Source: a virus | Length of the DNA stretch: 64,000 nucleotides | IMG/VR virus record: IMGVR_UViG_3300043598_000012 | Location: 1-64,000 of that record | Strand: one strand, 5' to 3' | Shown: one piece after another, positions 42,750 to 63,044 of the stretch | Layout of the letters: every line of letters begins with the position of its first letter | How positions within the stretch are numbered: the first letter of the stretch is position 1 | Translations under genes and position numbers: made by a program | Notes under the pieces: model-generated | Told to the model about the DNA's origin: nothing | The model's input: the letters and a program-made list of their open reading frames with translations, nothing else | The model's database searches: none

Positions 42750-42763
42750 CGTACCATGTCTCG

Positions 42764-42875
42764 GAGAGCCGCAGGTGTTTGCAACACTTCAACCCCATGG
42801 GGTAGATGAGCGACGGAGCCGTGATCCACTTGACCTCTGAGTGGTGCAGGCAGTAGAGGGGCGCCTGCGGCTCTC
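42764..42875 (+). ncRNA. candidate structured sRNA 1
   Basis: CG-TACCAT42752-N6-G; 12-bp terminal stem; internal hairpins; no ORF. Confidence 0.65.
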
Positions 42876-42912
42876 GCTCCCAACTTGGCGAGCATTGGTG
42901 TAAGATGTGGCT

Positions 42913-43209
42913 ATGACCACCGAAAAGGTTCAGCTGCTCGTTCTTCTCACCACCTCTGGGCCGTTGCCCATGGGCTACGCCGACAGTGACAGGGGCAAGG
43001 TGAGCCTGGGGCTCTCAGCGGCTCGCTACCAGCAAGCCAGGCTGGCGCACGGCCACCGCATCGTCGAGCTCTCTCAGCGCCGAGCTTCCTGGTGGATGTG
43101 CCACCAGATGTACGCAGAGCGGCAGATGATGATTGGGCATGCCTTGGCACGGCTCGAAGGCCGCACCTCCATGGGCTACGACGAGTGGCGGTGGGGTCGC
43201 TTCTCTTGA
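42913..43209 (+). CDS. hypothetical protein
   Basis: Leaderless TAAGAT42901-N6-ATG. Confidence 0.55.
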   Translation: MTTEKVQLLVLLTTSGPLPMGYADSDRGKVSLGLSAARYQQARLAHGHRIVELSQRRASWWMCHQMYAERQMMIGHALARLEGRTSMGYDEWRWGRFS

Positions 43210-43270
43210 GGTAGAGGTGTTCTTTCCAACAAGACGTGCGAAGTTGCCAACCGTGAGGCAAGATGTTCCT
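43210..43270 (+). promoter_or_regulatory. class I promoter, copy 2
   Basis: GGTAG43210, GACGTGCG43233, CAAGAT43259, ATG43271. Confidence 0.8.
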
Positions 43271-43681
43271 ATGACCACCACACCTAAGACCGCTGCCGAG
43301 TGGATGCGCCACTACGAACATCTGCCGCTGAAGGATCTGAAGATCCACGCTGGACAGAGCATGGGGCTCAGCACCGCCGGAGGCAGGGAGGCGATCCTGG
43401 ACCGCATCAGGGCTCTTCAGATCGAGGTGTATGGCCTTCCGACTCTTCCGATCAAAGACAAGATCTGGGACGACACGCTCTCCGAGTTCGAGAGCAGCTA
43501 CGAGGCTGTAGGCCATGCGGCCTTCTGGATGTCCTTCACCGGCTCAACCTACGACCACAGCGGCTACTATGAGCTGCGCACTCAACTGGAGGATCTTATC
43601 GACGAGGGCGAGCCTGAAGATGAGAATTGCCAGGATTTCGAGGCGTCACGTTGGAACGTCTACCAGGACTGTGCGTTCTGA
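43271..43681 (+). CDS. SAP-like domain protein
   Basis: YEHL.LKDLK......GLSTAG.R..IL.RI. Confidence 0.6.
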   Translation: MTTTPKTAAEWMRHYEHLPLKDLKIHAGQSMGLSTAGGREAILDRIRALQIEVYGLPTLPIKDKIWDDTLSEFESSYEAVGHAAFWMSFTGSTYDHSGYYELRTQLEDLIDEGEPEDENCQDFEASRWNVYQDCAF

Positions 43682-43874
43682 TGGCCCGCTCCAAGAGGAC
43701 CCTGTTCCTCGACAACCGCAACCGCTGGATCATGTCGGAGCCGACAGACAGCGGGTTCCTCCACACTCGACTCGGCACCACCAACACCTTCCAGACGCGA
43801 GAGCTCGCCGAGAAGGAGATGGTCCGAGTGGTTCGTCGCAGGCAGCGTGCTGCCGTCAAGCAAAGGAAGTCGGC

Positions 43875-44219
43875 ATGACCACCTTCATCACAAAGTTCGA
43901 GAACGACTCGATCCACGCTGTGACGCGTCACACATGGCACGTCACAGGTGTTGAGTATCACCGCAACGGCAGCGGAGGGGAGGGGTTCTATCTCGTCGAG
44001 TTCCACCGTGCGGTCATGGCTTCAGAAGACCATCGGCCCAGAGCAGCAAAGCTCTCCAAGGACAGCATCGTCCGCTACTTGAGCCTTCGAGCGGTAGTCT
44101 TCCGGACGGATTGCCATTGTGCTGTGTTCAACCCAGCCAAGGCAGACGACTGTTACCGTGGTGACAATTTCGAGCGTGGCCTCCGTGAGGTTATCAAGGT
44201 CTACGAGAAGTCGCTCTGA
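43875..44219 (+). CDS. hypothetical protein
   Basis: YHRNG.GGEGF...RGD.FE; ATGA coupling. Confidence 0.55.
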   Translation: MTTFITKFENDSIHAVTRHTWHVTGVEYHRNGSGGEGFYLVEFHRAVMASEDHRPRAAKLSKDSIVRYLSLRAVVFRTDCHCAVFNPAKADDCYRGDNFERGLREVIKVYEKSL

Positions 44220-44497
44220 TGGGCACCCACATCAACGTCGGCCCCCTTCGCTTCCCCAAGCAGGGAGAATGGCTTGGCAAGCGGGTCAACGTCTGCTTCC
44301 ACTTCAAGACCGAGGATCTCTTCCCTGGCACCATCGTGCGGGAGGACAGCGAGGAGCCTGGGCGCCTGATCATTGCGCTCGACGACGGGCGCTACGTCAT
44401 AAGCACGGAGTGCATGTATAGCTTCAACAACGTGCCAACCAACGAGGGTAACACGCCACCGTTCCCCGGCTTCGAGCATGTGATGGGAGGTGCGTGA
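44219..44497 (+). CDS. hypothetical protein
   Basis: FPKQG..LG.RV.VCF...G.IVR.D.EEP...I.LDDGR....EC.Y. Confidence 0.6.
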   Translation: MGTHINVGPLRFPKQGEWLGKRVNVCFHFKTEDLFPGTIVREDSEEPGRLIIALDDGRYVISTECMYSFNNVPTNEGNTPPFPGFEHVMGGA

Positions 44498-44749
44498 TGT
44501 TCAAGGGCTACCTCACGAGGATGGGAACAGTCACCCAGGACACCAAGTCAGCCGTAGATCCCGGGCTGGCTCGCAAGGGTGTGCGCTACTCTACCCGTAC
44601 TGGTGAGGACATCATCGGCGACGTGCACTTGATCCGCTCCTCACCAGCCTTGTGGGATGTCTTTTCACGGAACCCCTATAGGTTTGCCAGGGTGCAGGCT
44701 CCTAACCGGCGCTTCGCCATTGAGGCTGCCTTGGAAGAGGTGAACAGCA

Positions 44750-45172
44750 ATGCCGAAGGGTGATTGCTTCTCACTTGCACTATCGCTCGTGGCGGGGTAC
44801 GTGCATGGTGACCCCGTCAACAATCCCGACGATCAGGCTCCGATGCCTGGCGGCAAGGTCGTCCACGGGCTCCCCATTGGTCGCGGCCCAGAGAACATGG
44901 GCAAGCGGTACTGGCATGCATGGGTAGAGGTTGTCATCAACGGGGTGGTCACCGTCATGGACTACTCCAACGACCAGCGGATCACTATGCCCAGGGACGA
45001 GTACTACCGCTTCGGTAACATACAGCAGGTGTGGCGCTACAACGCTCACCAAGCCCGAGCTCAGTTCAAGAAGCAGCAGCGTTGTGGCCCTTGGGTCAAG
45101 GGCTGGGAGTCCATGAGCGAGGCCAGCGAGCACCGTCTGGCCGCTGAGCAAGCCGTCGCGGAGGGGTCGTGA
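44750..45172 (+). CDS. transglutaminase/papain-like fold protein
   Basis: GDCF, VHG, HAWVE, D.SN give a candidate Cys-His-Asp triad. Confidence 0.55.
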   Translation: MPKGDCFSLALSLVAGYVHGDPVNNPDDQAPMPGGKVVHGLPIGRGPENMGKRYWHAWVEVVINGVVTVMDYSNDQRITMPRDEYYRFGNIQQVWRYNAHQARAQFKKQQRCGPWVKGWESMSEASEHRLAAEQAVAEGS

Positions 45173-45807
45173 AGAAGAACATCGAGCGCGAGGAGCATCC
45201 TGCCTTTGCTATGGCAGAGGTCAACAGGGTGCACGCCACACCGGGCGCCGCTCTGTTCGACAGTGAGCTCCAGCACAGTGAGTACGTGGTGCTCCGCATC
45301 AAGCGAGCCATGCGTAGGCGAGAACTGAAGCGTGATTGGATCACCGACGCCGAGCAGCTCGTTGAGGTTTCCATGAGCATGGCCCAGTGGGGTGCCTTAG
45401 TGTCTTCGTTTGGCACCAACGGAGTGCCTGTGACCCTCAACTGGCTGTCGGGCGAAGGTGATGTAGAGCGGCTTTCCTACGAACCACGCATGGCCGAGTC
45501 GCTCAAGGAGATCGAAGGTGCAGCCACAGAGCTGGTGCATGACATTAGGTGGGCAGCGGACGAGCTCCGGGAGGCCTTCGACAACAAGGCCAGTCGTCGC
45601 GAGGTTGAGGATAAGCTGAGTCACCTGGAGGCCATGATCAACAACGCCCGTGCCGACGCTTGCTTCACGGCCACTCAGTTCTCCAAGCACGTTGAGAACA
45701 CCGTCACCAAGGCTCGTGCGGACATCGAAGCCATGGCCGCATCTGCCCAGCAGCGAGGGATCGAGGCGGGTAGCCTGCCGCTGATGGAGCTTCCTAGTGC
45801 CGACTGA
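45169..45807 (+). CDS. conserved hypothetical phage protein
   Basis: HPAF...LF.S...H...R.L..DW...EV.MS.AQW....S...GVP.T. Confidence 0.7.
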   Translation: MKKNIEREEHPAFAMAEVNRVHATPGAALFDSELQHSEYVVLRIKRAMRRRELKRDWITDAEQLVEVSMSMAQWGALVSSFGTNGVPVTLNWLSGEGDVERLSYEPRMAESLKEIEGAATELVHDIRWAADELREAFDNKASRREVEDKLSHLEAMINNARADACFTATQFSKHVENTVTKARADIEAMAASAQQRGIEAGSLPLMELPSAD

Positions 45808-45974
45808 GAAGCGATGTCGATGCGGGCATCTGATGCGCTGGCACAGGAAGCAGTGGCCAGACCAATGCACGATCTGTGAGCGTCGCTACGGTCCGACTAG
45901 CGCATGCCTACCACCTAAGGGGTGTTCGAACAAGACATCCGCACATAGCACAAAGGCAGGTGTATAATCATTGC

Positions 45975-46298
45975 GTGGCAACGAGAAAGTCAGGAGCAGC
46001 CAACCCAGGAGGAACAGAACGAACAAGGAGGCCAGCAGCCAACCTCGTCCAGCTAGCACTCGGGCGAAGCGTCCGGGTGTGGGGCGAAGCATCGATCACC
46101 GTCGCAGTGACGGACGATCCACCGCAGTTCGTCAAGGTGACGTTCGGGCACGAGCGGCTCGCAAGCAACGACAGCGAGCAGGAGATCCTCAAGACCGAAC
46201 GTCAGATTCACGCAACCAACAGCAAGGTCGTCGAGCGGAGAGCAAGGGAGCTCCGGCAGCTCGTGCATCGGACGATGGACGAGGGCGACTACGGCTGA
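45975..46298 (+). CDS. hypothetical protein
   Basis: Leaderless TG-TATAAT45963-N6-GTG. Confidence 0.6.
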   Translation: MATRKSGAANPGGTERTRRPAANLVQLALGRSVRVWGEASITVAVTDDPPQFVKVTFGHERLASNDSEQEILKTERQIHATNSKVVERRARELRQLVHRTMDEGDYG

Positions 46299-46534
46299 AG
46301 CTCGCACACAAGGATGTTCGCTCCGGTCAGTTCGTCGACCGGCTCGGACAGAAGCTGAGGCAGGGAGCCAAGGTTTGGCACTATCCCTACCGAGGTGAGA
46401 CACGGCATCGAGCCGTAGTGGCGAACGACGGCATCCTGGGACGGATGCTTGCAATCCAACTGGAGGGGGACCCCTTTCCGGTCAACGTAGACCACCGCAG
46501 GGTGGAACTCATGAAGGAGAGAGGACAACAGCAA

Positions 46535-47122
46535 ATGGCAACGACAGCAGCAGCCAACAAGCCTGCGAACGCCCGAGAGGCGCGAGCCATGGCGAAGGAG
46601 CTGGGCATCGAGGGTTGGGAGGACTTGGGCCGAGAGGACCTGCTGTCCGCCATCGCCACTGCTCAGAAGGGAAGTTCAGCAGCAGCTCCGACCAAGGCTC
46701 CAGCAGCCAAGAAGGCTTCAGGGGCCAAGAAGGCTCCGGCGAAGAAGGCAGCCACCAAGCGAGCTCCGGCCAAGGCCAAGGCTCCAACCAAGAAGGCCAG
46801 TGGTGGTCGGGCCAACCCCGATCCCGACGATCCGATCCCGTTCCGTCCGGGCACCAACCTGTACGAGATCGCCAAGGCGCTCCTCAAGGGCGGCAAGCGG
46901 TCGGTCCTCGTCAAGCACCTGAAGCCCAGGCTCAGCTTCAACCCCCGCAAGCAGAGCGCCAAGGACTTCGACACGGATGCCGAGATCGACCGTCGGCTGA
47001 AGGTCATCGGCTACATCCTCAAGAACCAGCACGGCTGGACCTACGCCTCCAACGGCCGCGGTCCCGACGCCCTGATCCAGGCGACGCCTCCGGGCACTGA
47101 GAACAAGGTCGCTGCCAAGTAG
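46535..47122 (+). CDS. histone-H1-like protein: Rho-N-like domain, AKKA repeats, C-terminal domain
   Basis: AKELGI.G...L.R.DL..AI; KKAPAKKAA repeats; purine-rich RBS; strong codon bias. Confidence 0.7.
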   Translation: MATTAAANKPANAREARAMAKELGIEGWEDLGREDLLSAIATAQKGSSAAAPTKAPAAKKASGAKKAPAKKAATKRAPAKAKAPTKKASGGRANPDPDDPIPFRPGTNLYEIAKALLKGGKRSVLVKHLKPRLSFNPRKQSAKDFDTDAEIDRRLKVIGYILKNQHGWTYASNGRGPDALIQATPPGTENKVAAK

Positions 47123-47152
47123 CTCATCCCCAACGGCTACTAGCGGCTGAGC

Positions 47153-47178
47153 CAGTGGGACCCTTCGGGGTCCCACTG
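47153..47178 (+). terminator. UUCG-capped hairpin terminator
   Basis: CAGTGGGACCC-TTCG-GGGTCCCACTG. Confidence 0.85.
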
Positions 47179-47193
47179 TCGCGTATGGATGAG

Positions 47194-47274
47194 AATTGCT
47201 GCTTTCTTGAGCCGTCAGTGAATTGCTGTTATTTTGGGGCGTCAGTAAATTGCTGCTTTTCGGGGCGTACTATG
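47194..47274 (+). repeat. three 27-bp imperfect tandem repeats
   Basis: AATTGCTG at 47194, 47221, 47248. Confidence 0.85.
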
Positions 47275-47279
47275 TCGGT

Positions 47280-47684
47280 GTGGAACCTCGCAACCCTGCT
47301 CTCCGAGAGCACGTCACACGAGTCGGCTTCAACCTCTCGCTCACCACCACGCAGATCGCCATCCTCGTCGAGATCAACGAGTGCTGGGCCAAGGACCGGC
47401 ACGTCGTAGGTTGGGGTTCTCCTTGGTCACACTTCGCCAGCACGTCGAGAGCTCTCCGAGTTCGAGGTCTGGTGTGGCACGAGTTCCCGGAGTGCAGTGC
47501 GGAGGATCGCTACAAGCACCCTCCCAGCGAGTACTTCGGGCTCACTGCGGCTGGTCAGTTCGTTGTGGGGTTGCTGTCTGAGGCAGGCCTCTACGAGGAC
47601 GTGCTGGAGATGATGCGCCGTCACGAGGCGGAGGGGCGCCTGAAGACGTGGTCTCACGAGCAGCATCTAGCGAACAGACCTTGA
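47280..47684 (+). CDS. possible winged-helix protein
   Basis: Leaderless CG-TACTAT-N6-GTG; L..RGLV...LT.AG..V..LL.EAGL. Confidence 0.55.
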   Translation: MEPRNPALREHVTRVGFNLSLTTTQIAILVEINECWAKDRHVVGWGSPWSHFASTSRALRVRGLVWHEFPECSAEDRYKHPPSEYFGLTAAGQFVVGLLSEAGLYEDVLEMMRRHEAEGRLKTWSHEQHLANRP

Positions 47685-47749
47685 GGTAGAAGGGTCTTTC
47701 CAGAAACTTTCAGAAATCACGTGCGTTCTGGTTACGGCTGGGGTATAGT
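47685..47749 (+). promoter_or_regulatory. class I promoter, copy 3 (10-bp internal duplication)
   Basis: GGTAG47685, CACGTGCG47718, TATAGT47744. Confidence 0.8.
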
Positions 47750-47800
47750 CACTTCAGACCGCTTCACCGAGGAGCGGACCCAGCACCAAGGAGTACCACC

Positions 47801-48082
47801 ATGTTCATGTCCGCCAAGGCCATCAAGCGGTTCGAGGATCTCTACGAGGTGTCCCCCAAGGACGTCAAGGGCCTCAAGTTCCTCTCCATCTCCCGCTCCA
47901 CCGGCACCCTCGTCGCCACGTACGACGGCACCAAGATCGACGTCGGCCAGACCGCTGACGACTTCCGTTGGGTGACCGTCGACGAGGACAAGGGCATCCT
48001 CACCACCCACGAGTCCCTCTCGGACGCTCGCTACGCAGCCAGCTTCCCCGAGCTCTGGGCCGACGAGTCCGTCGCTGCCTGA
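47801..48082 (+). CDS. hypothetical protein
   Basis: AAGGAG RBS; strong codon bias. Confidence 0.7.
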   Translation: MFMSAKAIKRFEDLYEVSPKDVKGLKFLSISRSTGTLVATYDGTKIDVGQTADDFRWVTVDEDKGILTTHESLSDARYAASFPELWADESVAA

Positions 48083-48105
48083 CCCCCTCAACGTACACTA
48101 GATCT

Positions 48106-48273
48106 GGTAGGGGCTCCGGCCCCTGTTCTAGGAGAGGGGGTGAGGCCGATGCGGGCAAGCGTCGCCAAAGCGACATCGGATGCGCACCGATTGCCCTAGC
48201 AATTCAACCACACAATGATGCGCAACGACACTTGTCTGGTTACGGTAGGTAGGCCTCTTTCCGGAGGCCTACC
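48106..48273 (+). ncRNA. candidate structured sRNA 2
   Basis: CG-TACACT48094-N6-G; 3-way junction; two TGCGCA loops; 3' hairpin GGTAGGCCTC/GAGGCCTACC. Confidence 0.6.
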
Positions 48274-48431
48274 GCCGCGTTTGGGCTTTGTTCGTGCTTC
48301 TTGGGGCGAGCTCGGCGTATACTCTTGGTGAAGCGGTTGGTGGTACTTCTGCTTCCGCTCCCCGCGAGCGTTGCTGGTCATCGAGTTGGAGCCCTTGCTA
48401 CGGCGAGGGCTTCGCTCGTGTTGCGTACAAG

Positions 48432-48890
48432 TCAAGCGGCTCTCAGGTATGCAGCAGCTCGCTCTAGCACGGCAGGGTCGTCGTTCGCAGCGGGCAGCAG
48501 GCTGCTGTTGCAGCGATGACAGAGGAGACCCCGCACTCTACCGGTCTTGTGGCAGTGATCGACATGCAAGGTACCCCATCTGCCCGAAGGCTTCTTCCGG
48601 CAGATGGCACAGCGTCCTCTTTGTTTCTTGAGCATGGCCTCGTACTCAATGAGAGTGATGCCGTACTTGCTCATCAGGAAGGTTTCTTTGTTGCGACGCT
48701 TCACAGCTGCAAGTCGCTTGGGGTCCTCCTTGATGGCATGCCAGCGAGCCTTTGCTGCTTCTGGAGAGTCAACCACGGAGCATCGGTAGCCGCCAGACCT
48801 ATGTCTGACCTTCACAGGCCCACACTGAGCACATCTTGCTGTCATCGCTTCTGGATCTATATCGCTCAGCCTGTGTAGGTGTTTGCCCAT
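48432..48890 (-). CDS. endonuclease VII-family HNH homing endonuclease
   Basis: KYGIT, Q.GRCAIC, HVDHCHKTGRVRGLLC..CN. Confidence 0.88.
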   Translation of the reverse strand: MGKHLHRLSDIDPEAMTARCAQCGPVKVRHRSGGYRCSVVDSPEAAKARWHAIKEDPKRLAAVKRRNKETFLMSKYGITLIEYEAMLKKQRGRCAICRKKPSGRWGTLHVDHCHKTGRVRGLLCHRCNSSLLPAANDDPAVLERAAAYLRAA

Positions 48891-48936
48891 AGAGGACGAT
48901 CATACCGCAAATGGCTTGTGCGTAAGATACTAGCCT

Positions 48937-49356
48937 ATGACCAAGCGAACCAAGCAGGACGAGTGGCCTCCTCTCTGGGCCATCTGGGGGCTCAGGAAGG
49001 GCTGGCACCCTCTGGAAGCTGGAGCATGGCATCCCCTGTTCCACTACAAGTCAGAGGCTGGAGCCAGGCGAGGAGAGCGGCTCGTGATCGAAGCTCAGGC
49101 TCATGAGAAGCACCTGCTGAGCCTCACACGAGGAGTCCGCGGTAGGCACGGTGCAGGCATCCAGGGCTACGTCCGCTTCAAGGCGGTGAGGCCAGGGTCC
49201 ACGCCAGTCAACCCGGCCAAGGTGCGCCCCACGAGGCGCCGTAAGAGCTGCCTCCGCTGCCACCACTCGATGCCGGTGAAGCGTTGGCGCATGCTCCGGC
49301 AGTGCTCCGAGTGTGGGTGGGTGCCCAAGCCCTACCGTCGAGCGCGAGCTGCATAG
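48937..49356 (+). CDS. basic zinc-ribbon protein
   Basis: CLRC...CSECGW. Confidence 0.5.
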   Translation: MTKRTKQDEWPPLWAIWGLRKGWHPLEAGAWHPLFHYKSEAGARRGERLVIEAQAHEKHLLSLTRGVRGRHGAGIQGYVRFKAVRPGSTPVNPAKVRPTRRRKSCLRCHHSMPVKRWRMLRQCSECGWVPKPYRRARAA

Positions 49357-49361
49357 TCCCA

Positions 49362-49422
49362 GGTAGCAATGTTCTTTCCACAAGCACGTGCGGAGCTTGA
49401 AGGGATGTGTAAAGATAGCGTC
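49362..49422 (+). promoter_or_regulatory. class I promoter, copy 4
   Basis: GGTAG49362, CACGTGCG49385, AAAGAT49411, ATG49423. Confidence 0.75.
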
Positions 49423-49665
49423 ATGGACACCAACGATCGTCGCCAAGGACCCCGTCGGGCATCCGAGCAGAGGGCACACCTCGCTCGGGAGCTCATCCTG
49501 GAGCAGGCACGAGCTCTCGTCAGCATAAACCGCCGACCGGCCACCACGTTGGTCGAGCAGAGCGAGCAGGCAGTCGACATGCGTCGCAAGGTGGCCGACC
49601 TGGGCACCCTGATCGACACGCTCGACGAGGCAGAAGAGCTTGTCAAGCAGGAGCGAGTCAAGTGA
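49423..49665 (+). CDS. hypothetical protein
   Basis: Leaderless start; GTGA coupling to the next gene. Confidence 0.55.
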   Translation: MDTNDRRQGPRRASEQRAHLARELILEQARALVSINRRPATTLVEQSEQAVDMRRKVADLGTLIDTLDEAEELVKQERVK

Positions 49666-51023: not shown

Positions 51024-51028
51024 TCCCA

Positions 51029-51089
51029 GGTAGAGAGGTTATTTCCAGAATCACGTGCGAAGTTGGAAAGCCTGAGGTAAGATGCTCTC
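51029..51089 (+). promoter_or_regulatory. class I promoter, copy 5
   Basis: GGTAG51029, CACGTGCG51052, TAAGAT51078, ATG51090. Confidence 0.85.
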
Positions 51090-51344
51090 ATGACCACCAC
51101 CGCCTTCCCAACCACGGTCCTCCGCTCCGAGTGGGGCACCTCGTACCACACGAGCTCTGCCTTCGAGGGCTGCAACCTCAGCGTCAAGCGGCTCGTCGAT
51201 GAGCCCAACGAGCACGGAGGCGTTGGCAACACCCATCGCCATCCCATCTACGACGGCATCCACTTCCCCACGAGCGATGCGGCTCGCTTCTTCGCTCTCC
51301 TCGTCGGCCTCGTCCGGCCCTACACCTACTGGGGTGCCAAGTGA
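51090..51344 (+). CDS. hypothetical protein
   Basis: Leaderless start. Confidence 0.6.
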   Translation: MTTTAFPTTVLRSEWGTSYHTSSAFEGCNLSVKRLVDEPNEHGGVGNTHRHPIYDGIHFPTSDAARFFALLVGLVRPYTYWGAK

Positions 51345-54228: not shown

Positions 54229-54268
54229 CCTCCGCAGACCAACAGCAGAACTCAGGCACAACGGAGTC

Positions 54269-55124: not shown

Positions 55125-55134
55125 CTAGTTACCA

Positions 55135-55195
55135 GGTAGAAGCGTTCTTTCACAGAACGCGTGCGTTCTTGTCACTGATCAGGCATAGTGTTGGT
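55135..55195 (+). promoter_or_regulatory. class I promoter, copy 8
   Basis: GGTAG55135, CGCGTGCG55158, CATAGT55184, ATG55196. Confidence 0.85.
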
Positions 55196-55402
55196 ATGAC
55201 CGCTTCCGAAACCACCGCAGTGCTCCACGAGCTCATCAACACAGGGTCGGCTCGCCGCCAGGGTGGAGTCAAGATCTCCACCATCGCCTCTCGGCTCGGC
55301 TGCTCCGTCAGCGAGGTCGAGTTCGACGCTGCTGTCCACCAGATCAACCACGCCACCTGCGTGGTGTCCTTCCGACCCAACTCGGCGGAGGCCTGCAAGT
55401 GA
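55196..55402 (+). CDS. small HTH-like protein
   Basis: ISTIASRLGCSVSEV; leaderless start. Confidence 0.5.
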   Translation: MTASETTAVLHELINTGSARRQGGVKISTIASRLGCSVSEVEFDAAVHQINHATCVVSFRPNSAEACK

Positions 55403-55845
55403 GCATCACCTTCACCTTCGGCACCGTCGCTGACAACGGCGCCACCAGCATCGGTCTCCTCCACGAGCACCTGTGCCCGACGCCCGACGCCTGCGAGGAC
55501 GCCCAGATGTACTCGCCTGCCTGCTGCGACCATGCCGAGGCACTCGTGGCTATGTGTGGCTGCCAGCACTTCGACGTCAACGCCTCCTCGGCCAACGCAT
55601 CTGTCATCCTCTCCCGGATGGGCATCGCAGGCCAGATGGTGGGCACCATGGACGCTGAGGACTACCTGGGCAGAGTGCTGCTGGCCCAGCTGGAGGATCC
55701 AGCGCCAGTCATGGTTGGTGGAGCTGTCGAGGCAGCCTTCGGGGTGGGCGCAGTCGAGGCCAACGCTGAGGCACACCACTGGCACCGGCTGGAGCGTCTG
55801 GCCCACGAGGCTCGGCTCTCGGGCTGGCTTGTGGCCTGGGCCTAG
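55399..55845 (+). CDS. Cys-rich hypothetical protein
   Basis: VN.S.ANA...L..MG; L..LA......V.WA. Confidence 0.6.
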   Translation: MSITFTFGTVADNGATSIGLLHEHLCPTPDACEDAQMYSPACCDHAEALVAMCGCQHFDVNASSANASVILSRMGIAGQMVGTMDAEDYLGRVLLAQLEDPAPVMVGGAVEAAFGVGAVEANAEAHHWHRLERLAHEARLSGWLVAWA

Positions 55846-55899
55846 GGGCTCGCCAGGAAACCGCGTGTCGAGGAGCTCGACATGGGGTAGAGTGGGGCC

Positions 55900-56046
55900 A
55901 TGGACATGGCACTCGCACTTCGTCGGCAGCTGGCCACCACGGCACAGCGACGGCTCGCCGAGCTCCGCATCGCTGCTCCCCACCGGGAGATCGGCTCCGC
56001 CATCGTCGACGAGCTCGACGAGGACGAGGTGCTGCGAGCCTCCTAG
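55900..56046 (+). CDS. small hypothetical protein (48 aa)
   Basis: Hand-translated; CGCGTG55862 and TAGAGT55888-N6-ATG. Confidence 0.5.
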   Translation: MDMALALRRQLATTAQRRLAELRIAAPHREIGSAIVDELDEDEVLRAS

Positions 56047-56415
56047 AGCTCCCAGCCAGGAGGTGGGCTGTCCGTCTCCTCGATGGTGAGGCCAGGCAGA
56101 TCGAGCCGGATGGCGTAGCCCCAGTCCATGTGCGCCCAGAGGAAGCCGTGCTGGTCTCTGGAGACGTGCTCTAGGACGCCAGCAGCGCCTCCTGCTTGGC
56201 CTGCCTTGCCTCGCCACTGGATGTGCACGTAGCGGCCCACCAGGCTACGAGCTCCGCCTCGACATGGATCGGGACAGCGAGACCTACATGCAGGACGTGC
56301 CGGTCTACTTCGACGAGGCTCGCCTCTACGCCACCATCGACCACCTCTCCGACGTGCGCTACGGGCTCGTCTGAGGCATAGTTCCTACGTACCACCAACC
56401 ACAAGGAGACACACC

Positions 56416-56799
56416 ATGCGTACCCTGAAGACCCTCGCTCTGGCCGGAGGCCTCGTGCTCGGAGCAGCTGCCTGCTCTCCGCTCTCGATCCACGGCACCT
56501 GGGTCAAGACACCTCCGGCGCAGACCTCCCAGGTCGAGGACGACCCCAACTGGGACTGCCTCAACTCGGGCAACGGGCTGTGCGGACCTCTCAAGGCACA
56601 GGTCAACTGCTCGACGGGCTGGGTCAAGGTCTACGACCGCTTCGGCACTCAGGTCATGAACCTCGCTCCGGCTCAGGTCGAGGTCCTGCCCACGGGCTAC
56701 ATGGTCCTGGAGGACACGGACGGAGACGCCCCCTACGGAGGCACGCAGCTCGACGGGTTCCTGGGCACGGTGTTCCCAGGCAACTACAACGCCTGCTAG
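56416..56799 (+). CDS. putative lipoprotein
   Basis: AAGGAG RBS; signal peptide ending GAAAC; EDDP.WDC...GN..CGP. Confidence 0.7.
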   Translation: MRTLKTLALAGGLVLGAAACSPLSIHGTWVKTPPAQTSQVEDDPNWDCLNSGNGLCGPLKAQVNCSTGWVKVYDRFGTQVMNLAPAQVEVLPTGYMVLEDTDGDAPYGGTQLDGFLGTVFPGNYNAC

Positions 56800-56875
56800 A
56801 CCTCCTCTACTCCGCTCTACGGCTGCGTGGCGCCCCTTGTGGGCGCCACTGCCGCGCTTGAGGTAGGATGTCAGC

Positions 56876-57211
56876 ATGGACGCTCTAGATCTCGCTTGGT
56901 TGGCTGGGCTGTTGGAGGGTGAGGGCTCCTTCGGACTCAAGAAGTACAAGAGGAAGCGTGGAGGAGAGCGTGGCTATCCCATTGTCAAGGTCAAGATGAC
57001 GGACAGGGATGTCGTCGAGCGTGCGGCTGTTCTCTTCGGAGACAGTGCGGTGCTCGTGTGTCCTCCTCCAGCCAACTATCCACACCACAAGGTCCAGTAC
57101 AGGACAGAGGTGACTGGCTCTCGGGCTCGCCAGATGATGTGCGAGCTTCGACCTATGCTTGGGCTACGACGCCAAGCGCAAGTGGATACAGCTCTCAGCT
57201 GGCAGCACTAG
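56876..57211 (+). CDS. single-motif LAGLIDADG endonuclease
   Basis: LAWLAGLLEGEGSF, V.MTD.DV; leaderless TAGGAT-N6-ATG. Confidence 0.85.
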   Translation: MDALDLAWLAGLLEGEGSFGLKKYKRKRGGERGYPIVKVKMTDRDVVERAAVLFGDSAVLVCPPPANYPHHKVQYRTEVTGSRARQMMCELRPMLGLRRQAQVDTALSWQH

Positions 57212-57533
57212 AGCCACCGTCGCGTCCGGGCTCCGATGCTGCTAGGAGGAGCGAGGCCAGAACGTCCGGGACCTCGACTCGTAGGTCACGAGTGCCTCCT
57301 GCTCCAGTCAACCACACGGTGTTCTCGTGGACTGTCAGGCCTGCCTCCACGAGTAGCTGGAGCAGGGTGCGGTGTAGGTCGAGCTCCTCCCATGCCTCGC
57401 CCAACTCCTCCCAAGCCTCGTTGAGCATGCGGTCCTGCTCCAACCGAGGGGCCAGAGCCTCCTTGTCGAGACCCTGTAGTAGGTCTACGGGCGGGTGCTC
57501 GGAGGGTACATGGATGTGTAGGTGGAGGTCCAT
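57195..57533 (-). CDS. hypothetical protein
   Basis: Leaderless CG-TACTAT-N6-ATG on the minus strand. Confidence 0.5.
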   Translation of the reverse strand: MDLHLHIHVPSEHPPVDLLQGLDKEALAPRLEQDRMLNEAWEELGEAWEELDLHRTLLQLLVEAGLTVHENTVWLTGAGGTRDLRVEVPDVLASLLLAASEPGRDGGSSAAS

Positions 57534-57549
57534 GCCACCATAGTACGGC

Positions 57550-58310
57550 ACTCCAACTGAAGTGCGGGCGGTTCTAGAGGCAGACCCTCTACTACTCCAG
57601 CATGCTCTCACCTACAGGTCTATCTATAGGTGACAAGAGAGACCTACCATCTACCACATAGTCCCAGTACAACTGTCTCACTTCGACCTTCGGTCCCACG
57701 ATCCCAGGGTCCAATGACGATGAGAGTAGGTCTATCACTCTCCATGGATCTGTGGACATCTCCTTGTCACTAATAGGTCTATCATTGTCATGCTACTCCA
57801 CTCTATGCTGGGGTAGTAGAGCTCCCGCAAACAACCTATTGGTGACAAGCCTGCCCTTCTTTAACCTTAAACTAAAGGACTCAGACTCCTTCACTCCAAG
57901 CAATAGACCTCTAGGCTTCTACTTCTACCCTTGAGTCTAAGAGGGCATCGTGACAACCCTCTACTTGGCGGTGATCCTCTAACCCAGTGAGGTGAGGTCT
58001 ATCCATACACCTCTATGACTCTACCCTCTACTCTATATAGACTGATGATCATCATGACTCTATGTCTATCTACTGCTATGCTCCTACTCCTCGTCACTTC
58101 ATGTAGGTCTATAGGCCTATCCTCTTGTCATCATGTAGGCCTATTGGACCCCGCCCCTCTTTATCCTTGCGATTTTTTGTCTACCTCTGATCCACCTCCC
58201 CAATCCCAATGTCACAGATAGAAGCATTCCACTCTTTCCACATAGCACGGCGCCATCTACGTCTACTAGACCAACTTCGGCTACACGCCGCCTGATTTCC
58301 ATGACAGGTA
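57550..58310. other. lower-GC non-coding repeat-rich region (candidate origin or packaging site)
   Basis: No convincing ORF; repeated AGGTCTAT and TGACAA/TTGTCA. Confidence 0.6.
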
Positions 58311-58354
58311 GCGTAAGATAGAGGGGGTACCAGCCAACCCACTTGGGAGACCCA

Positions 58355-58573
58355 ATGGCATCACCCATGACCACACATCTAGTAGAGGAACTCGACCGTC
58401 TCACACGGGAGAACGGCACGGAGCATCCAAGCTGCCCCATCTGCAAGGGCAAGGTGGAGTTGACGCCCACGCATGCCATCGTCTGCGTAGATTACGGTTC
58501 TGATCACTACCGCTGGGAGCTACCTGCGGTTGAGGTGCGGGAGCCCAAGCCTTCAGGTGTCCATGGCAGGTAA
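58355..58573 (+). CDS. zinc-binding hypothetical protein
   Basis: CPIC...C......H. Confidence 0.45.
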   Translation: MASPMTTHLVEELDRLTRENGTEHPSCPICKGKVELTPTHAIVCVDYGSDHYRWELPAVEVREPKPSGVHGR

Positions 58574-59056
58574 GCACACACCCCGAGACACGGGCAACCG
58601 AGGGCACATGACCCACACCCCCTTCCGGGCGTCGGTGCTACCTACGGTGCACCTAGAACAGCCGGGTACGTCCGCCAACGCAGACGCCTATGGGCGGCAG
58701 GCCATCCCGCTCCAGCGGACCCTGACGGTGTTCTGCTGGTGCTACTACCGGGAAGTGCCCGTGGCCCAGCGAGACGTCAAGGCGGGCCTCACGGGACCCT
58801 GCGAGCTGCTCTGGTGCTTGGAGACCGACCGCATCAAGCGTAACCAGTACGGGCCACCGGGACCCACGTCATGACTGCTTACAACGGGATGTACCGCTGC
58901 CCTGGAGGCCAGAAGCCGCCTGCTAGGCGTCGAGGGTGGGCGGCGCAGTGCTCGGAGTGCGGACGCTGGGGAAAGACCTATCCAAATGGCACGGTGGTCA
59001 TGCACAAGCGGCGCCGAGCAACCAAACCGCCTTCGCCTGCGGCGTAGGATATGGTT

Positions 59057-59359
59057 ATGGGAACCATCGAAGCGTTGGAAGAAGCGATCACCTACCTGGC
59101 GGACACGCACAACCTGTACCTGTGGCGTGTGAACGAGAGACTGGGTGGAGAACATGTGAAGGGTTGGGCCTTCGCTCGTCGGGGGCTCCGTAATGACTTC
59201 CAGGCCGACACCATCAGCGGCGCCGTGACCTTCAACCTGGAGAAGATTCGGGAGGACAACAGGCTGGCACAGAAGAAGACTCAGGAGAGCTTGGAGACCA
59301 CCATGTACACCTCCACCAGAGTCGGCGAGCTTCTCAGCAAGATTCGCACAGCGGAGTGA
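59057..59359 (+). CDS. hypothetical protein
   Basis: Leaderless CG-TAGGAT-N6-ATG. Confidence 0.55.
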   Translation: MGTIEALEEAITYLADTHNLYLWRVNERLGGEHVKGWAFARRGLRNDFQADTISGAVTFNLEKIREDNRLAQKKTQESLETTMYTSTRVGELLSKIRTAE

Positions 59360-59688
59360 CGGTTACCGTCAACATCCCTGGGCGAGCCTACCTGGCTTGC
59401 CTCGATCCCCTCGCTACTGGCGTACCCGAAGAAGAGGGGTGGCCGGAGCCCCGCATCATCAAGCGAGGTAGGCTGGAGTTCAGTGCTCGCTACGAACTCA
59501 CCCGGTACCAGGCCTACCAGATGATGACGCACATGCGGGACTTCGGGGAGACGCTGGGCGGCGCAGGCGTCGACGATGAGCTGCGAGAGGGTCCTGCCTG
59601 CCTCAGGGGCGCCTATGCCCTGGCCAAGGCTCTCGGCCACGAGGACGAGCTCTACCCCGCCACTCGGCCACCTCGTGACGTAGGATAG
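59356..59688 (+). CDS. hypothetical protein
   Basis: GTGA coupling. Confidence 0.55.
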   Translation: MTVTVNIPGRAYLACLDPLATGVPEEEGWPEPRIIKRGRLEFSARYELTRYQAYQMMTHMRDFGETLGGAGVDDELREGPACLRGAYALAKALGHEDELYPATRPPRDVG

Positions 59689-59692
59689 GTCT

Positions 59693-59780
59693 GAAAGAGG
59701 GGCGAGTACTCTTGGTGAACCTCCGAGCCAGATGGGGACGATCTGGCCGCAAGGTCGACCGGCTCTGCTCGCCCCTCTTC
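59693..59780 (+). ncRNA. candidate structured sRNA 3 (rod-like)
   Basis: CG-TAGGAT59681-N6-G; AAGAGGGGCGAG/CTCGCCCCTCTT; apical GCCAGAT/ATCTGGC. Confidence 0.6.
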
Positions 59781-59793
59781 GTACCATGGGGGT

Positions 59794-60183
59794 ATGACAC
59801 CCACACTTGGACGCATCGTGCTCTATCGGACGGACGGTCGCAACGGGCTGGTCTATGACCTCCCGGCGATCATCACCTGCACGGCGGAGACCCACCCTGG
59901 CAACTACCCGGACGGCAGCACCAACCCGTTGCCGGTGCCCGGACGAGACGAGGTGCACCTGACGGTGTTCACTCCCGGAGGGTTCGGCACCAAGGTGGGA
60001 CCGTGGCCTGACTCGGGACCTCGTCAGCCTGACACGGACGCCGACTTCAAAGATGCCACGCAGCTGGTTCCTGGGAGCGGCACCTACGTCGAGCTCTTGG
60101 TGCCCTACGCCTTCGGCGGTGAGGCAGCACAGAGAGGTGCCGACCTCCCGCATCGCACCTGGCGTTGGCCGGAGCGCGTCTGA
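59794..60183 (+). CDS. conserved hypothetical phage protein
   Basis: PTLGRIV.Y...PAIIT...V.L.VF.P...TW.WP.RV; leaderless start. Confidence 0.7.
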   Translation: MTPTLGRIVLYRTDGRNGLVYDLPAIITCTAETHPGNYPDGSTNPLPVPGRDEVHLTVFTPGGFGTKVGPWPDSGPRQPDTDADFKDATQLVPGSGTYVELLVPYAFGGEAAQRGADLPHRTWRWPERV

Positions 60184-60449
60184 TGGAAGACATCAGGGGC
60201 GTCGAGTTCACCACCTACATCCCGGCTGGCATCAAGAGCACCGAGGAAGCCGTAGCGCACCTTGCTCCACTGTTCTCGCCCGATGCGAGCGTCGTCATCG
60301 CTGCCATGGAGTACGACTACATCGGCGAGTACGGGCAGACAGCTCAGCATCCTGTCAAGCTGGAGGTGCGAGACCGAGCCTGGGTCACCCTCACCACGGA
60401 GCCTCCGCAGCCACGAGACCCTGGTCGGAAGACCTCAACGGGGACCTGA
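60183..60449 (+). CDS. hypothetical protein
   Basis: TGATG coupling. Confidence 0.5.
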   Translation: MEDIRGVEFTTYIPAGIKSTEEAVAHLAPLFSPDASVVIAAMEYDYIGEYGQTAQHPVKLEVRDRAWVTLTTEPPQPRDPGRKTSTGT

Positions 60450-60799
60450 TGGACCTCAACGAAGCTACTGAGCAAGAGCTGGTCAAGGCGCTCGCTCGCC
60501 TCAACCTTAATCGGGACACTTCAACCCGGTACGTCTACGACGGGCTTGGCCAGCGGTTCGAGATCGCTTACCTTTCCACATACAGGACCGGCAAGCGGCA
60601 GTACACTTGCCTTGACGCTCCGTTCGATGGCTAACACACCCAGGAGCTCAGAGAGCGCCATCTACCTTGTGGTGCCCACTTGGTGGAGTTCTGTGATGGT
60701 TTGGCAGACACGCTGGAGCATCTGGCGCATCGACCAGAACCGCAAGGCCATCGCCAGGCATAGGAAGAGCCTCCAGGTCTACGCCGAGCGTGCGAAGAG

Positions 60800-61042
60800 G
60801 TGGTTGTGATGGAGCGACCCACCAACGAGTACTTGGTCTTCGAGGAGCACGAGCCTGCTCAAGGAAAGAAGACCAAGACGGTTCATGTCAAGTCGGTTCG
60901 AGGCGCCTACTTGGGGATGATCATCTGGTACGGGGCCTGGCGGTGTTACACCTTCCAGCCAGCTCCCGTCACGGTGTTCAACCACGGGTGTCTCAAGACG
61001 ATCAACGAGTACATCGCTCAGCTGATGGATGAACGCCGGTGA
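60800..61042 (+). CDS. hypothetical protein
   Basis: LG.I.WYG.WR.Y.F.P...T.FN..CL..I. Confidence 0.6.
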   Translation: MVVMERPTNEYLVFEEHEPAQGKKTKTVHVKSVRGAYLGMIIWYGAWRCYTFQPAPVTVFNHGCLKTINEYIAQLMDERR

Positions 61043-61108
61043 CATCTTGGTGGCATTGGGCGCTCTGGGGTCACGACCTCTTCTGGCCCTGGGAGTAGGA
61101 TTCACTTC

Positions 61109-61390
61109 ATGGGAGCGCCCTTCACACAAATGGACATGGCAGCCGCGAACGAGAGCTGTGGAGCCCCAGAGCCTGTGTTCGACGACTGCCCCGCTTGCAG
61201 GGGTCGAGTGGGGCTGCATTGCGCCGAGTGCAAGATTCAGGTCACCGGCTGCACTTGCACGGAGGCAGCCCGCTTCGACCCCCTCACAGCTTGGGAGGCC
61301 ACCTGCCAGAGGTTGGGGGAGGACGAGGCGAGGAAGGCATACAAGTCGGCGGGCATCCCGATCCCCGGAGAGGGGCTGATCCTTCCATGA
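61109..61390 (+). CDS. Cys-rich hypothetical protein
   Basis: CPAC...C..C.....C.C. Confidence 0.5.
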   Translation: MGAPFTQMDMAAANESCGAPEPVFDDCPACRGRVGLHCAECKIQVTGCTCTEAARFDPLTAWEATCQRLGEDEARKAYKSAGIPIPGEGLILP

Positions 61391-61514
61391 GCCAGTATAA
61401 GAATCCACACAAGAGCGCGGTGCCGTGGGGACTTTGGGCGCTGGTGATCGTCATGTTGGCGGTCGTGTTCTGGAACGTCTACCAGATGGCGGAGCACTGA
61501 CGTACGATCCTCTC

Positions 61515-61636
61515 GGAAGGTCCTGGCTCGGCAGCATGGACCTTTCGGCAGTGCGGGGTACTGAGAGCGGGGCGGCTTGGGCTTGGTGTCAGAAACGGCT
61601 CCTCGGAGGCCTGAGTCGCCTCGCTCTTCGCTTTTC
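61515..61636 (+). ncRNA. candidate structured sRNA 4
   Basis: CG-TACGAT61503-N6-G; three hairpins, the last 21 bp with 5 G-U pairs, then a T-rich tail. Confidence 0.65.
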
Positions 61637-61649
61637 GTAGCATAGGTGT

Positions 61650-62117
61650 ATGGCACACCCCCGCAACATGACGCAGACGGCGCCGTACCCCACAGAGCTC
61701 GCTGAGCTCGTGGAGGGCTTCCACTACCGTCCTGGCTGGCAATGTCGACTGCTCGACGACTTCGTGCGAGAGCGGGAGGATCCTGCTGATGACAGCTCTC
61801 CGCCGCTGGTCTGGGGACTGACCCTCGACATCATCACTCGGGGCTACAACTCCTACCACCCTGAGCAGGGCCAGAACTACGGGGTTCATCACTACATGAT
61901 CGTGCCAGCGGCCACGTACAACCGTGAGTCATGGCAGAGGTGGCTCCTCAACCAGCACTTCCTCGTCGAGCAGCACGAGACGTGCGAGTTCTTCGTGGTG
62001 AACGGTGAGCATCCGTTCGCGCCTAACCACGGTCCTGGCAACGACCCCTACAGGGTGGTCGAGTACGCTCCTGATGAGGACCGGCGGACCTCGTTTCGAG
62101 GCGTCGTCAAGGACTAG
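61650..62117 (+). CDS. conserved hypothetical phage protein
   Basis: YRPGW, H...VP, E.HE.CEFF...PF.P.H; leaderless start. Confidence 0.7.
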   Translation: MAHPRNMTQTAPYPTELAELVEGFHYRPGWQCRLLDDFVREREDPADDSSPPLVWGLTLDIITRGYNSYHPEQGQNYGVHHYMIVPAATYNRESWQRWLLNQHFLVEQHETCEFFVVNGEHPFAPNHGPGNDPYRVVEYAPDEDRRTSFRGVVKD

Positions 62118-62119
62118 AC

Positions 62120-62470
62120 GTGCCCAAGAGCTGCGAGGACTGCAACGGCAAGGGAGCTCGCTCGGCTGTCGCTGGGCACTGCTTCGACATCGACGGCGGG
62201 CTCTGGCATGGCCCAGGCGAGTGCCACAGCTGTGCCCCAAGTTGCTGCCCGCCTTGTCCCACCTGCGGCGGCAGAGGGACCCTCTCGACGCCAGAAGAGC
62301 TCGCTCTGAGACTGGTAGAGGCCTTCTGGGGGGATGAGACCAACTGGATCGACTTGAATGGCACGTATTTGACACTAGATGGCCAAATTGGGGGCGTTTC
62401 TGACGAAATTCGGGGTTTTATCAACGAAATGGACCAAAAGTGGCGAAATTCGCCACTAGGAGGCGGATAA
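62120..62470 (+). CDS. DnaJ-type zinc-finger protein
   Basis: CEDCNGKG and CPTCGGRG. Confidence 0.55.
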   Translation: MPKSCEDCNGKGARSAVAGHCFDIDGGLWHGPGECHSCAPSCCPPCPTCGGRGTLSTPEELALRLVEAFWGDETNWIDLNGTYLTLDGQIGGVSDEIRGFINEMDQKWRNSPLGGG

Positions 62471-62519
62471 TGTGGAAAATCTGCCATTTTGGCCATTTTT
62501 CGTCATTTTGGGGTGAAAA

Positions 62520-62678
62520 GTGACAGAAATCACATGCGGTGCCTGTGGGGGCACCGGAGAGATAGAAATGGCAAATCCTCCGTTGGATCCTGTCACTTGG
62601 GAGTGCAGGGAGTGTGATGGGATGGGGATTGACCCTAAATACACCCGTCGCATGGAAAAGCGCCAGGATCAGCTGTGA
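62520..62678 (+). CDS. small DnaJ-type zinc-finger protein
   Basis: Hand-translated CGACGGTG...CRECDGMG. Confidence 0.55.
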   Translation: MTEITCGACGGTGEIEMANPPLDPVTWECRECDGMGIDPKYTRRMEKRQDQL

Positions 62679-62890
62679 ATCTCCGCTGGGAGGGCTGGGT
62701 GCGCACCAGAAACGGCGCTATCACCTGCTATGTGCGGATCAAGGCTGAAGATGCCGTGGACGCCGTCCATCGAGCACAGGCATCTGCTCACCGCAAGCAT
62801 GGCAACAAGCAGTACGGGCTCGACGACTTCGTCTGCATCGGGGTCTCGCTCCACGAGGGCGACCAGAACCTGATCGGCGACGTACCATAA
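62675..62890 (+). CDS. hypothetical protein
   Basis: GTGA coupling. Confidence 0.5.
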   Translation: MNLRWEGWVRTRNGAITCYVRIKAEDAVDAVHRAQASAHRKHGNKQYGLDDFVCIGVSLHEGDQNLIGDVP

Positions 62891-62894
62891 CGTC

Positions 62895-63044
62895 GAGAGA
62901 GTGGCCGGTCATGTACCGTCTGCGTTGTGCTCACAAGACAGCGGACCAGCAAAGGCAAGCTCTGTCAGTACGTGGATGTCGTGCGGAAGCCCGACGTGAT
63001 GCGGCCTTCAACTTGCGGGCTCTGAGCGTCCGGTCACTCTCTCG
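62895..63044 (+). ncRNA. candidate structured sRNA 5
   Basis: CG-TACCAT62883-N6-G; terminal stem GAGAGAGTGGCCGG/CCGGTCACTCTCTC; GGAA tetraloop hairpin. Confidence 0.7.

Follow-up and report, generated by a model that had tools for sequence, protein, structure and literature searches.

The five loci described here lie in the genome of an uncultured soil phage of actinobacteria, 80.9 kb long and about 14% noncoding, which carries a sigma-like gene of its own. Within the window, the 64,000-nucleotide stretch that was analysed, each locus is a noncoding gap with the same reading on the + strand: NCGTAnn(A/C)T, six nucleotides, and a G (five of five sites), from which a strongly folding segment extends. 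An earlier sequence-only reading had proposed that five gaps share one design, and direct reading of the sequence confirmed this at A, B, C, D, and E, where the predicted +1 triplets are GAG, GGT, GAA, GGA, and GAG, respectively. All boxes and elements below are on the + strand.

Element A lies behind an SNF2 helicase gene (40953-42749), whose TAG stop codon is directly followed by box P1-A (CGTACCAT, 42750..42757), the spacer gtctcg, and the predicted +1, G42764. The element (42764..42893) consists of a 112-nt multibranch fold with a 17-pair closing stem (42764-80 / 42859-75), after which comes a small 3' hairpin (42876-93). A second box, P2-A (GTGTAAGAT, core TAAGAT at 42901), then leads through gtggct to the leaderless ATG42913 of a 98-aa gene (box through start codon, 42898..42915). 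Box P1-B (CGTACACT, 48092..48099) begins 9 nt 3' of the stop of the gene at 47801-48082 and is followed by agatct and the predicted +1, G48106. The 168-nt element B (48106..48273) has an 11-bp GC-rich hairpin as its 3' end (48248-73), then a T-rich tail. Its site is a convergent gap beside a minus-strand endonuclease VII gene, a setting missed in the earlier description. Nearby, an extra box (CGTATACT), six nucleotides, and G48330 precede a folded segment of 102 nt (48316..48431; z -3.70; -46.4 vs -29.7 kcal by strand). Any transcript from the extra box at 48316 would extend in antisense direction to the minus-strand endonuclease VII gene (48435-48890).

The remaining three elements lie further downstream. 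Box P1-C (CGTAGGAT, 59679..59686) overlaps the TAG stop (59686-88) of the gene at 59356-59688, and aggtct separates it from the predicted +1, G59693. Element C (59693..59781) is an 89-nt rod-like hairpin closed from the +1, with 12 perfect base pairs between 59695-706 and 59768-79. It runs into box P2-C (CGTACCAT, core TACCAT at 59782), which is followed by gggggt and a leaderless ATG59794 (59780..59796). Box P1-D (CGTACGAT, 61501..61508) is directly 3' of the TGA of a 37-aa membrane-like ORF (61387-61500); after cctctc and the predicted +1, G61515, element D (61515..61637) forms three hairpins (61515-46, 61549-63, and 61564-627), the last being a 64-nt rod followed by GCTTTTCG. Box P2-D (CGTAGCAT, core TAGCAT at 61638), then aggtgt, places the leaderless ATG61650 of a conserved 155-aa gene (61636..61652). 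Box P1-E (CGTACCAT, 62881..62888) lies within the final codons of the gene at 62675-62890, with aacgtc between it and the predicted +1, G62895. Element E (62895..63044) is a 150-nt four-way fold with a 15-bp closing stem (62894-908 / 63030-44). The box after it, P2-E (CCTAAGAT, core TAAGAT at 63047), has its predicted +1 at G63059 and serves ATG63115 through a 56-nt leader with GGAGGG (63045..63117). A coding extension of this gene through E (ORF 62911-63441) was rejected because its Arg-rich composition is untypical, and also because the GGAGGG Shine-Dalgarno precedes ATG63115.

Placement of the box is non-random. No more than six of its bases are fixed, and in the window it occurs overall about twice as often as in shuffles (CGTANNAT 17 times vs 8.35 +/- 3.2; 3 of 100 shuffles reach 17), but 14 of the 15 occurrences of CGTAnnAT on the + strand of the genome are at gene borders. 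At least 10 leaderless genes with long ORFs start at an ATG or GTG 6 nt after the same box type. The earlier reading had cited such leaderless starts in support of its +1 positions, an inference that holds. The earlier claim of a separate -10 box ahead of the next gene in four cases was also correct (42901, 59782, 61638, and 63047). The argument that this box serves the next gene is sound for A, C, and D, in which a leaderless ATG needs it. Two results bear on whether these are independent small-RNA genes: on in silico grounds, box and 6-nt spacing match those of the at least 10 leaderless genes, and codon-bias-supported ORFs are absent from all five gaps.

All five elements fold better than 200 dinucleotide shuffles, with z-scores between -2.6 and -5.1 for borders picked by eye, which bears out the description of strongly base-paired segments of 88-168 nt. 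They are also more structured than 178 other gap windows of the genome (Mann-Whitney p = 7e-4). Individual scores were z -2.75 for A (-51.5 kcal), z -2.56 for B (z -5.25 in the sub-window 48183-48282), z -5.12 for C (-51.6 kcal), z -4.35 for D, and z -3.28 for E with full ends, falling to z -1.0 if four 3' bases are trimmed. Structure begins at the predicted +1 in A, C, D, and E. As had been proposed, A, C, and E are clamped by 5'/3' stems and B and D end in terminator-like hairpins. The closing stems of A and C are perfect over 12 bp, and that of E spans 15 bp with a single mismatch; in the MFE folds they lengthen to 16-17 pairs. Counting E, there are four perfect inverted repeats of at least 12 bp with 30-200 nt spacing in the 80.9-kb genome, and A, C, and E are three of them. 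Folding favours the + strand via G.U pairs, by 27.5 kcal in D (-68.3 vs -40.8; 8 G.U pairs), 11.9 kcal in E (-65.8 vs -53.9; 10 G.U pairs), and 6.1 kcal in A (-51.5 vs -45.4), and most clearly so in D and E. This G.U-dependent advantage implies that the structure exists in RNA and rules out a purely DNA-level inverted repeat.

Searches for known families returned nothing. Rfam covariance models gave no match at gathering scores in the whole window, nor any at E<=5 in 42700-64000 (two chance matches fell elsewhere), and ARAGORN found neither tRNA nor tmRNA. These searches agree with the earlier reading, which did not recognise the elements as tRNA, tmRNA, SRP, 6S, or a known riboswitch. Complementarity between elements and the phage genome was limited to 13-18 nt (E>=0.1), none beyond chance. 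Among roughly 40 neighbouring small proteins, Pfam and PHROGs identified no RNA-binding or RNA-processing protein.

Comparison with relatives was constrained by their distance. Megablast and tblastn found nothing near among cultured phages. In IMG/VR, JGI metagenomes, and GTDB genomes, scans with single proteins and with alignments yielded only relatives with 32-58% protein identity, in which the elements are absent at matching places. Closer relatives, at 72-84% identity, are known as proteins only: P0122-P0126 (72-84% identical to the product of gene 61650-62117) and P0002-P0004 (SNF2, 71-76% identical). Neither homologues nor paralogues were detected when the elements were compared by blastn with all relatives' loci obtained and with their own genome. 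Searches of 401 Actinomycetota genomes with elements C and D, and of five genomes with the 4-kb region, brought up only short matches at chance level and the 155-aa gene. The sequencing runs listed as containing the sequence are two DNA datasets from the source soil, with no RNA run among them, and the contigs of that sample show no population variants. The same box is in use in relative G001 (SNF2 identity 37%), where two box-plus-structure units in tandem, one 135 nt long (z -5.0) and the other 165 nt (z -3.5), precede a third box and a gene judged by eye to be DnaB-like. No close relatives of G001 were found.

A further property had escaped the sequence-only reading: every element stands at an operon end, as the sole terminator candidate. 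The boxes are on or just 3' of the last stop codon, with C and E overlapping the final codons, A and D immediately after them, and B 9 nt away. No further terminator candidates exist between the upstream gene and each element, so the upstream operon and the element presumably share one terminator. The earlier proposal of separately promoted, structured small RNAs stands as to noncoding, strand-specific RNA folds of no known family, but it overlooked this terminator position. In B and D the hairpin is followed by a U-rich tail. The long closing stems of A, C, and E lack a U-tract; hence, termination there is assumed. A consensus terminator scan did not list the five elements.

These observations suggest that the five loci are short noncoding transcription units at operon 3' ends, a prediction to which we assign a probability of about 0.5. 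The five segments would most likely be short stable RNAs that double as operon stop signals, and judging from sequence, it is plausible that the elements are new phage ncRNAs. Under this model, a -10-type box (NCGTAnnAT) lacking a -35, placed on or right after the last stop codon, would direct a start at the G seven bases downstream, and its reader would most likely be the primary sigma factor of the actinobacterial host. The RNA would fold from its first nucleotide into the 88-168-nt structure, with 5' and 3' ends clamped in A, C, and E and with hairpin chains closed by a terminator-like end in B and D. One structure may then halt not only the short transcript but also transcription reading through from the operon upstream, leaving the next gene to be expressed only from its own box. 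Because leaderless ATGs without a Shine-Dalgarno follow A, C, and D, a message continuing from the first box could not be translated at its first gene; for translation, the next gene must be a leaderless mRNA, as its own box would supply. The small RNAs produced would be stable and protected at their ends. Firing of the boxes, stopping at the element, and any role of the RNA in trans are putative. Nothing speaks in favour of sponge, anti-defence, or packaging roles. Put-like antitermination RNAs were considered and rejected, there being no fold or sequence common to the copies. A broader idea, which we regard as doubtful, is that this group of uncultured ~80-kb actinophages builds end-clamped stable small RNAs into its early-operon terminators, as a multi-member repertoire of no known family that acts in trans on the host (e.g., by decoying RNA polymerase holoenzyme, RNases, or an RNA-sensing defence).

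The elements may instead be operon terminators or insulators that end upstream operons and protect 3' ends, with boxes that are silent, weak, or incidental and a separate RNA that is irrelevant. Because the elements sit where operon terminators are needed, each as the sole candidate at its operon end, termination alone explains much of the structure without a promoter. The U-rich tails of B and D fit this explanation, as do closing-stem elements found directly upstream of promoters in relatives G002 and G005, with no box in front. The phage itself has a box-less look-alike (14149..14226; 78 nt, 14-bp closing stem, z -5.65) directly 3' of a stop codon between convergent genes, and its strands are equally stable. 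However, all five elements have the exact box at the exact 6-nt spacing from the first paired G, and chance would not place a six-base motif in this way five times. Elsewhere, the motif is almost restricted to working junctions. Moreover, the box-less terminators of the same genome are far smaller, simple 25-40-nt hairpins (21507, 47153, 54268, 56826, and 79776), in contrast to box-linked elements of 88-168 nt that are multibranched. We view termination alone as possible, but well short of probable.

Less likely still is that the segments are structured 5' leaders, such that the first box yields a long leadered mRNA stabilised or regulated by its 5' fold and the second box yields a leaderless form. 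True 5' UTRs of the phage (19804, 63047) also open with a hairpin at or near the +1, and the closing stems of A, C, and E lack a following U-tract. Nevertheless, the first genes after A, C, and D have no Shine-Dalgarno and start 6 nt after their own box, so there would be no translation from the long form. Terminator-like hairpins end B and D, and there were no matches to riboswitch or leader families. It is very improbable that the segments are DNA-level elements, such as recombination cassette junctions (MITE-like or integron attC-like hairpins) or replication/priming sites: inverted terminal arms do enclose 60-120 bp between gene cassettes, with a GAGAG...CTCTC flavour in A, D, E, and C (as AAGAG) as well as in G001 and G005, but blastn found no sequence in common among copies, the flanking boxes are not duplicates of one another, GTTRRRY/RYYYAAC cores are absent, and the folds rely on G.U pairs, with the other strand much weaker in D, E, and A.

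If the boxes of these predicted transcription units fire, a single genome would carry five to seven structured small RNAs that are unrelated to one another. That number would far exceed any described from an actinophage, a group in which even single abundant ncRNAs have no known function. The succession of promoter, terminator-RNA, promoter, and leaderless gene would then also indicate how units are insulated in a genome made up of leaderless cassettes. With silent boxes, the finding shrinks to unusually elaborate terminators.

Several known systems resemble parts of this arrangement. The I-shaped (U-tract-poor) intrinsic terminators of actinobacteria are GC-rich stems directly after stop codons, often with no U-run. 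The phage elements are also GC-rich stems behind stop codons, but they are 88-168 nt, multibranched, and have a box in front, whereas the phage's plain terminators measure 25-40 nt. In phage lambda, the PR'-tR' '6S' RNA and oop RNA arise from a constitutive promoter with a terminator within 80-200 nt, which gives a short structured RNA upstream of other genes. Here, too, a box is followed by a candidate terminator structure within a similar distance, before other genes. However, the lambda PR'-tR' unit is one site that serves Q antitermination, while the phage has five unrelated units and next genes with their own promoters. The 3'-end sRNAs of the MicX, DapZ, and MicL type have their own promoter and a shared terminator (PMC9438474). 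Judged by the stop codons, the phage boxes likewise fall inside the upstream ORF or at its very end (9 nt after it in B), and the terminator structure would be shared. The known sRNAs regulate by base pairing in enterobacteria and Vibrio, depend on Hfq, and have single-stranded seeds and U-tailed terminators (PMC9438474), whereas the phage RNAs are almost fully paired, belong to an actinobacterial host, have no target that we could see, and are predicted only. Abundant intergenic ncRNAs without known function have been described from actinophages, as in L5, D29, and StarStuff (PMC5712189) and Rhodococcus phage WC1 (PMC10986025). These were detected by RNA-seq, number one to three per genome, and in some cases are ~500 nt and lie at genome ends (PMC5712189, PMC10986025). 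Although we found no sequence similarity to them, both groups are phage-encoded, intergenic, noncoding, and associated with actinobacterial hosts.

Each of five folded non-coding segments on the + strand, sites A to E, is preceded by a -10-type box and a 6-nt spacer and begins with a G at the predicted +1. This shared design, proposed in a sequence-only reading, was present in all five cases: CGTACCAT/gtctcg/G42764 at A (42764-42893), CGTACACT/agatct/G48106 at B (48106-48273), CGTAGGAT/aggtct/G59693 at C (59693-59781), CGTACGAT/cctctc/G61515 at D (61515-61637), and CGTACCAT/aacgtc/G62895 at E (62895-63044). Judged from sequence, the box is a genuine signal in the phage genome, an argument carried by its placement rather than its count. 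On the + strand, 14 of 15 copies of CGTAnnAT lie at gene borders, while only ~14% of the genome is non-coding, and at least ten long ORFs have their ATG or GTG exactly 6 nt behind a box of this type (NCGTAnnAT, GGTAnnAT, or GTGTAAGAT). The raw count of 17 boxes was only about twofold the 8.35 ± 3.2 found in shuffles. Second boxes stand before the next genes downstream of A, C, D, and E, as had also been claimed; three of these four lead to leaderless ATGs (42913, 59794, 61650), and the fourth to a 56-nt leader with a GGAGGG Shine-Dalgarno sequence ahead of ATG63115.

The virus record, from a soil metagenome, is 80,880 bp with direct terminal repeats, the window being its first 64 kb. Its G+C content is ~60%, nearly every gene is on the + strand, and its products include a tape-measure protein, DNA polymerase III alpha, DnaB, RecA, a SNF2 helicase, and an amino acid:DNA transferase. 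It has no close relative among cultured phages. The host is most likely an actinobacterium, given that a gene beyond the window (genome 65213-65764, +) codes for a secreted protein that joins an Rpf-type transglycosylase domain (PF06737, 1.2e-29) to a linker rich in Thr and Pro, and that the cellular homologues of the phage's 155-aa gene come almost exclusively from Actinomycetota. Actinobacteria typically have TANNNT -10 boxes without a -35 element, and leaderless mRNAs (PMC3898074). A 151-aa protein with sigma-70 region 2 (19185-19637, +; PF04542, 1.7e-7) suggests that the phage may redirect RNA polymerase and that some promoter classes may depend on a phage sigma factor. Promoters of a second class, TAAGAT + 6 nt + ATGACCACC, occur at 18387-18404 and 51075-51092 (and 42898-42915). 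The boxes at 18390 and 51078 have GAATCACGTGC in common ~30 nt upstream. These sites are repeated cassette heads.

Compared with dinucleotide shuffles, the folds had z-scores of -2.75 (A), -2.56 (B), -5.12 (C), -4.35 (D), and -3.28 (E, falling to -1.0 when four 3' bases of its closing stem are omitted), with 3-10 G.U pairs per fold. As a set, the segments showed more structure than the 178 other gap windows compared (p = 7e-4). The 12-15 bp closing stems described earlier were found in A, C, and E (inverted repeats of 12, 12, and 15 bp; 16-17 pairs once folded), where they start at the predicted +1. These are three of only four perfect inverted repeats of at least 12 bp with 30-200 nt spacing in the genome, counting E despite one mismatch. 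The two terminator-like ends proved to be those of B and D, chains of hairpins ending in a GC-rich one with a U-rich tail behind it. The folds are strand-specific: on the opposite strand, stability fell sharply for D (-68.3 vs -40.8 kcal), E (-65.8 vs -53.9), A (-51.5 vs -45.4), and an extra unit at 48330 (-46.4 vs -29.7), which assigns the structure to + strand RNA rather than to DNA. The elements had not been recognised as tRNA, tmRNA, SRP, 6S, or a known riboswitch, and Rfam gave no match at gathering scores across the window; at E ≤ 5 in 42.7-64 kb there was none except two chance matches elsewhere. With ARAGORN, neither a tRNA nor a tmRNA was found.

What the sequence-only reading missed is that every element sits at an operon's end and is the sole terminator candidate there. 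The SNF2 gene precedes A, and the operons from boxes 59043, 59780, and 61636 end at C, D, and E, respectively. The upstream box lies on the last codons (C, E), directly behind the stop codon (A, D), or 9 nt behind it (B). Other operon ends (21507, 47153, 54268, 56826, 79776) have plain 25-40-nt hairpins with weak U-tracts, then the next box. An element without a box at 14149-14226, between convergent genes, has a 14-bp closing stem (z -5.65) and folds with equal stability on both strands, behaving as expected of a putative two-way terminator. B occupies the convergent gap ahead of a minus-strand endonuclease VII/HNH-type nuclease gene (48435-48890; Pfam PF02945, 5.9e-25; PHROG 7e-33). This gene, the only clear minus-strand one in that part of the window, looks like an inserted free-standing nuclease, and a + strand box at 48316 would give a predicted folded transcript antisense to it.

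The feature is real and non-random. We predict, with a probability of about one half, that A-E are promoter-driven small RNAs sharing operon terminators. All observations are covered most simply by a non-coding cassette set between protein cassettes: a box would drive a structured RNA that doubles as its terminator, and the next cassette follows. Their location would also suit terminators and nothing more, which we consider unlikely because the exact box and spacing recur in 5/5 cases, the fold begins at the predicted +1, and the elements far exceed the genome's plain terminators in size and complexity. Read-through into structured leaders of the following genes seems more improbable still, since the first genes behind A, C, and D lack a Shine-Dalgarno sequence and need their own box for the leaderless form. 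That the elements act as junctions at the DNA level is hardly credible, with the structure apparently in the RNA. For the predicted small RNAs, sponge, anti-defence, and packaging roles are guesses, and Pfam and PHROGs searches with about 40 small proteins encoded nearby recognised no RNA-binding protein.

Two other stretches of the window stand out. The 740 bp at 57570-58310, bounded by a leaderless gene on the minus strand (box 57540-47) and a box at 58312, are ORF-poor and A/T-richer, with many AGGTCTAT(C) and TTGTCA/GTGACAA repeats (e.g., TAGGTCTATCATTGTCA). They recall the 13-mer repressor sites (YGWCTATTGTCAA) of cluster A/CA actinophages (PMC10986025) and are a candidate operator array or origin. 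The A/T-richer 62330-62560, flanked by two small Cys-rich ORFs, folds strongly (z -3.75 at 62418-62517) and holds a 31-nt imperfect inverted repeat (62370-400 with 62475-505) and the palindrome GGCGAAATTCGCC.

The relatives read were distant group members only (SNF2 36-45% identical). G001 (IMGVR_UViG_3300012984_000016) has 18 copies of the same CGTAnnAT box, 13 of them intergenic and several with a leaderless ATG. On its minus strand (~30330-30700 in + coordinates), three tandem boxes spaced 150-180 nt apart precede a gene that we take to be DnaB-like, by eye from its translation alone; boxes 1 and 2 each lead, from +1 on, into a folded non-coding stretch (135 nt, z -5.0; 165 nt, z -3.5). In G002 and G005, closing-stem elements, some with the GAGAG...CTCTC flavour also seen in the arms of A, D, and E (as AAGAG in C), lie directly upstream of promoters. 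G002 (IMGVR_UViG_3300028007_000001) has 18 copies of a palindromic motif, GAAAGTTTC, three of them inside TTGACA-N17-TACCAT promoters on the gene strand (in the regions 12599-12750, 15752-15965, and 17874-17950). The promoters at 12.6 and 15.7 kb are 9-10 nt from closing-stem elements of 124 and 186 nt, and that at 17.9 kb adjoins a simple hairpin. Elaborate RNA structure just ahead of a promoter is therefore a habit common to the group, and the added upstream box is common to the studied phage and at least G001. No element of these relatives is homologous in sequence to A-E, and no homologues were found in the relatives' loci compared, in the genome itself, or, for C and D, in 401 Actinomycetota genomes. 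Among sequencing runs, only two DNA runs of the source soil sample were found to contain the sequence, no RNA run among them, and contigs from that sample showed no population variants.

A-E are best seen as new, family-less RNAs of an already known type, promoter-driven small RNAs that share a terminator. Among known layouts, that of the 3'-end sRNAs MicX, DapZ, and MicL comes closest: each is transcribed from a promoter of its own within the upstream ORF and shares its terminator (PMC9438474). In terms of biology, the nearest known counterparts are the abundant actinophage ncRNAs without assigned function (PMC5712189, PMC10986025).
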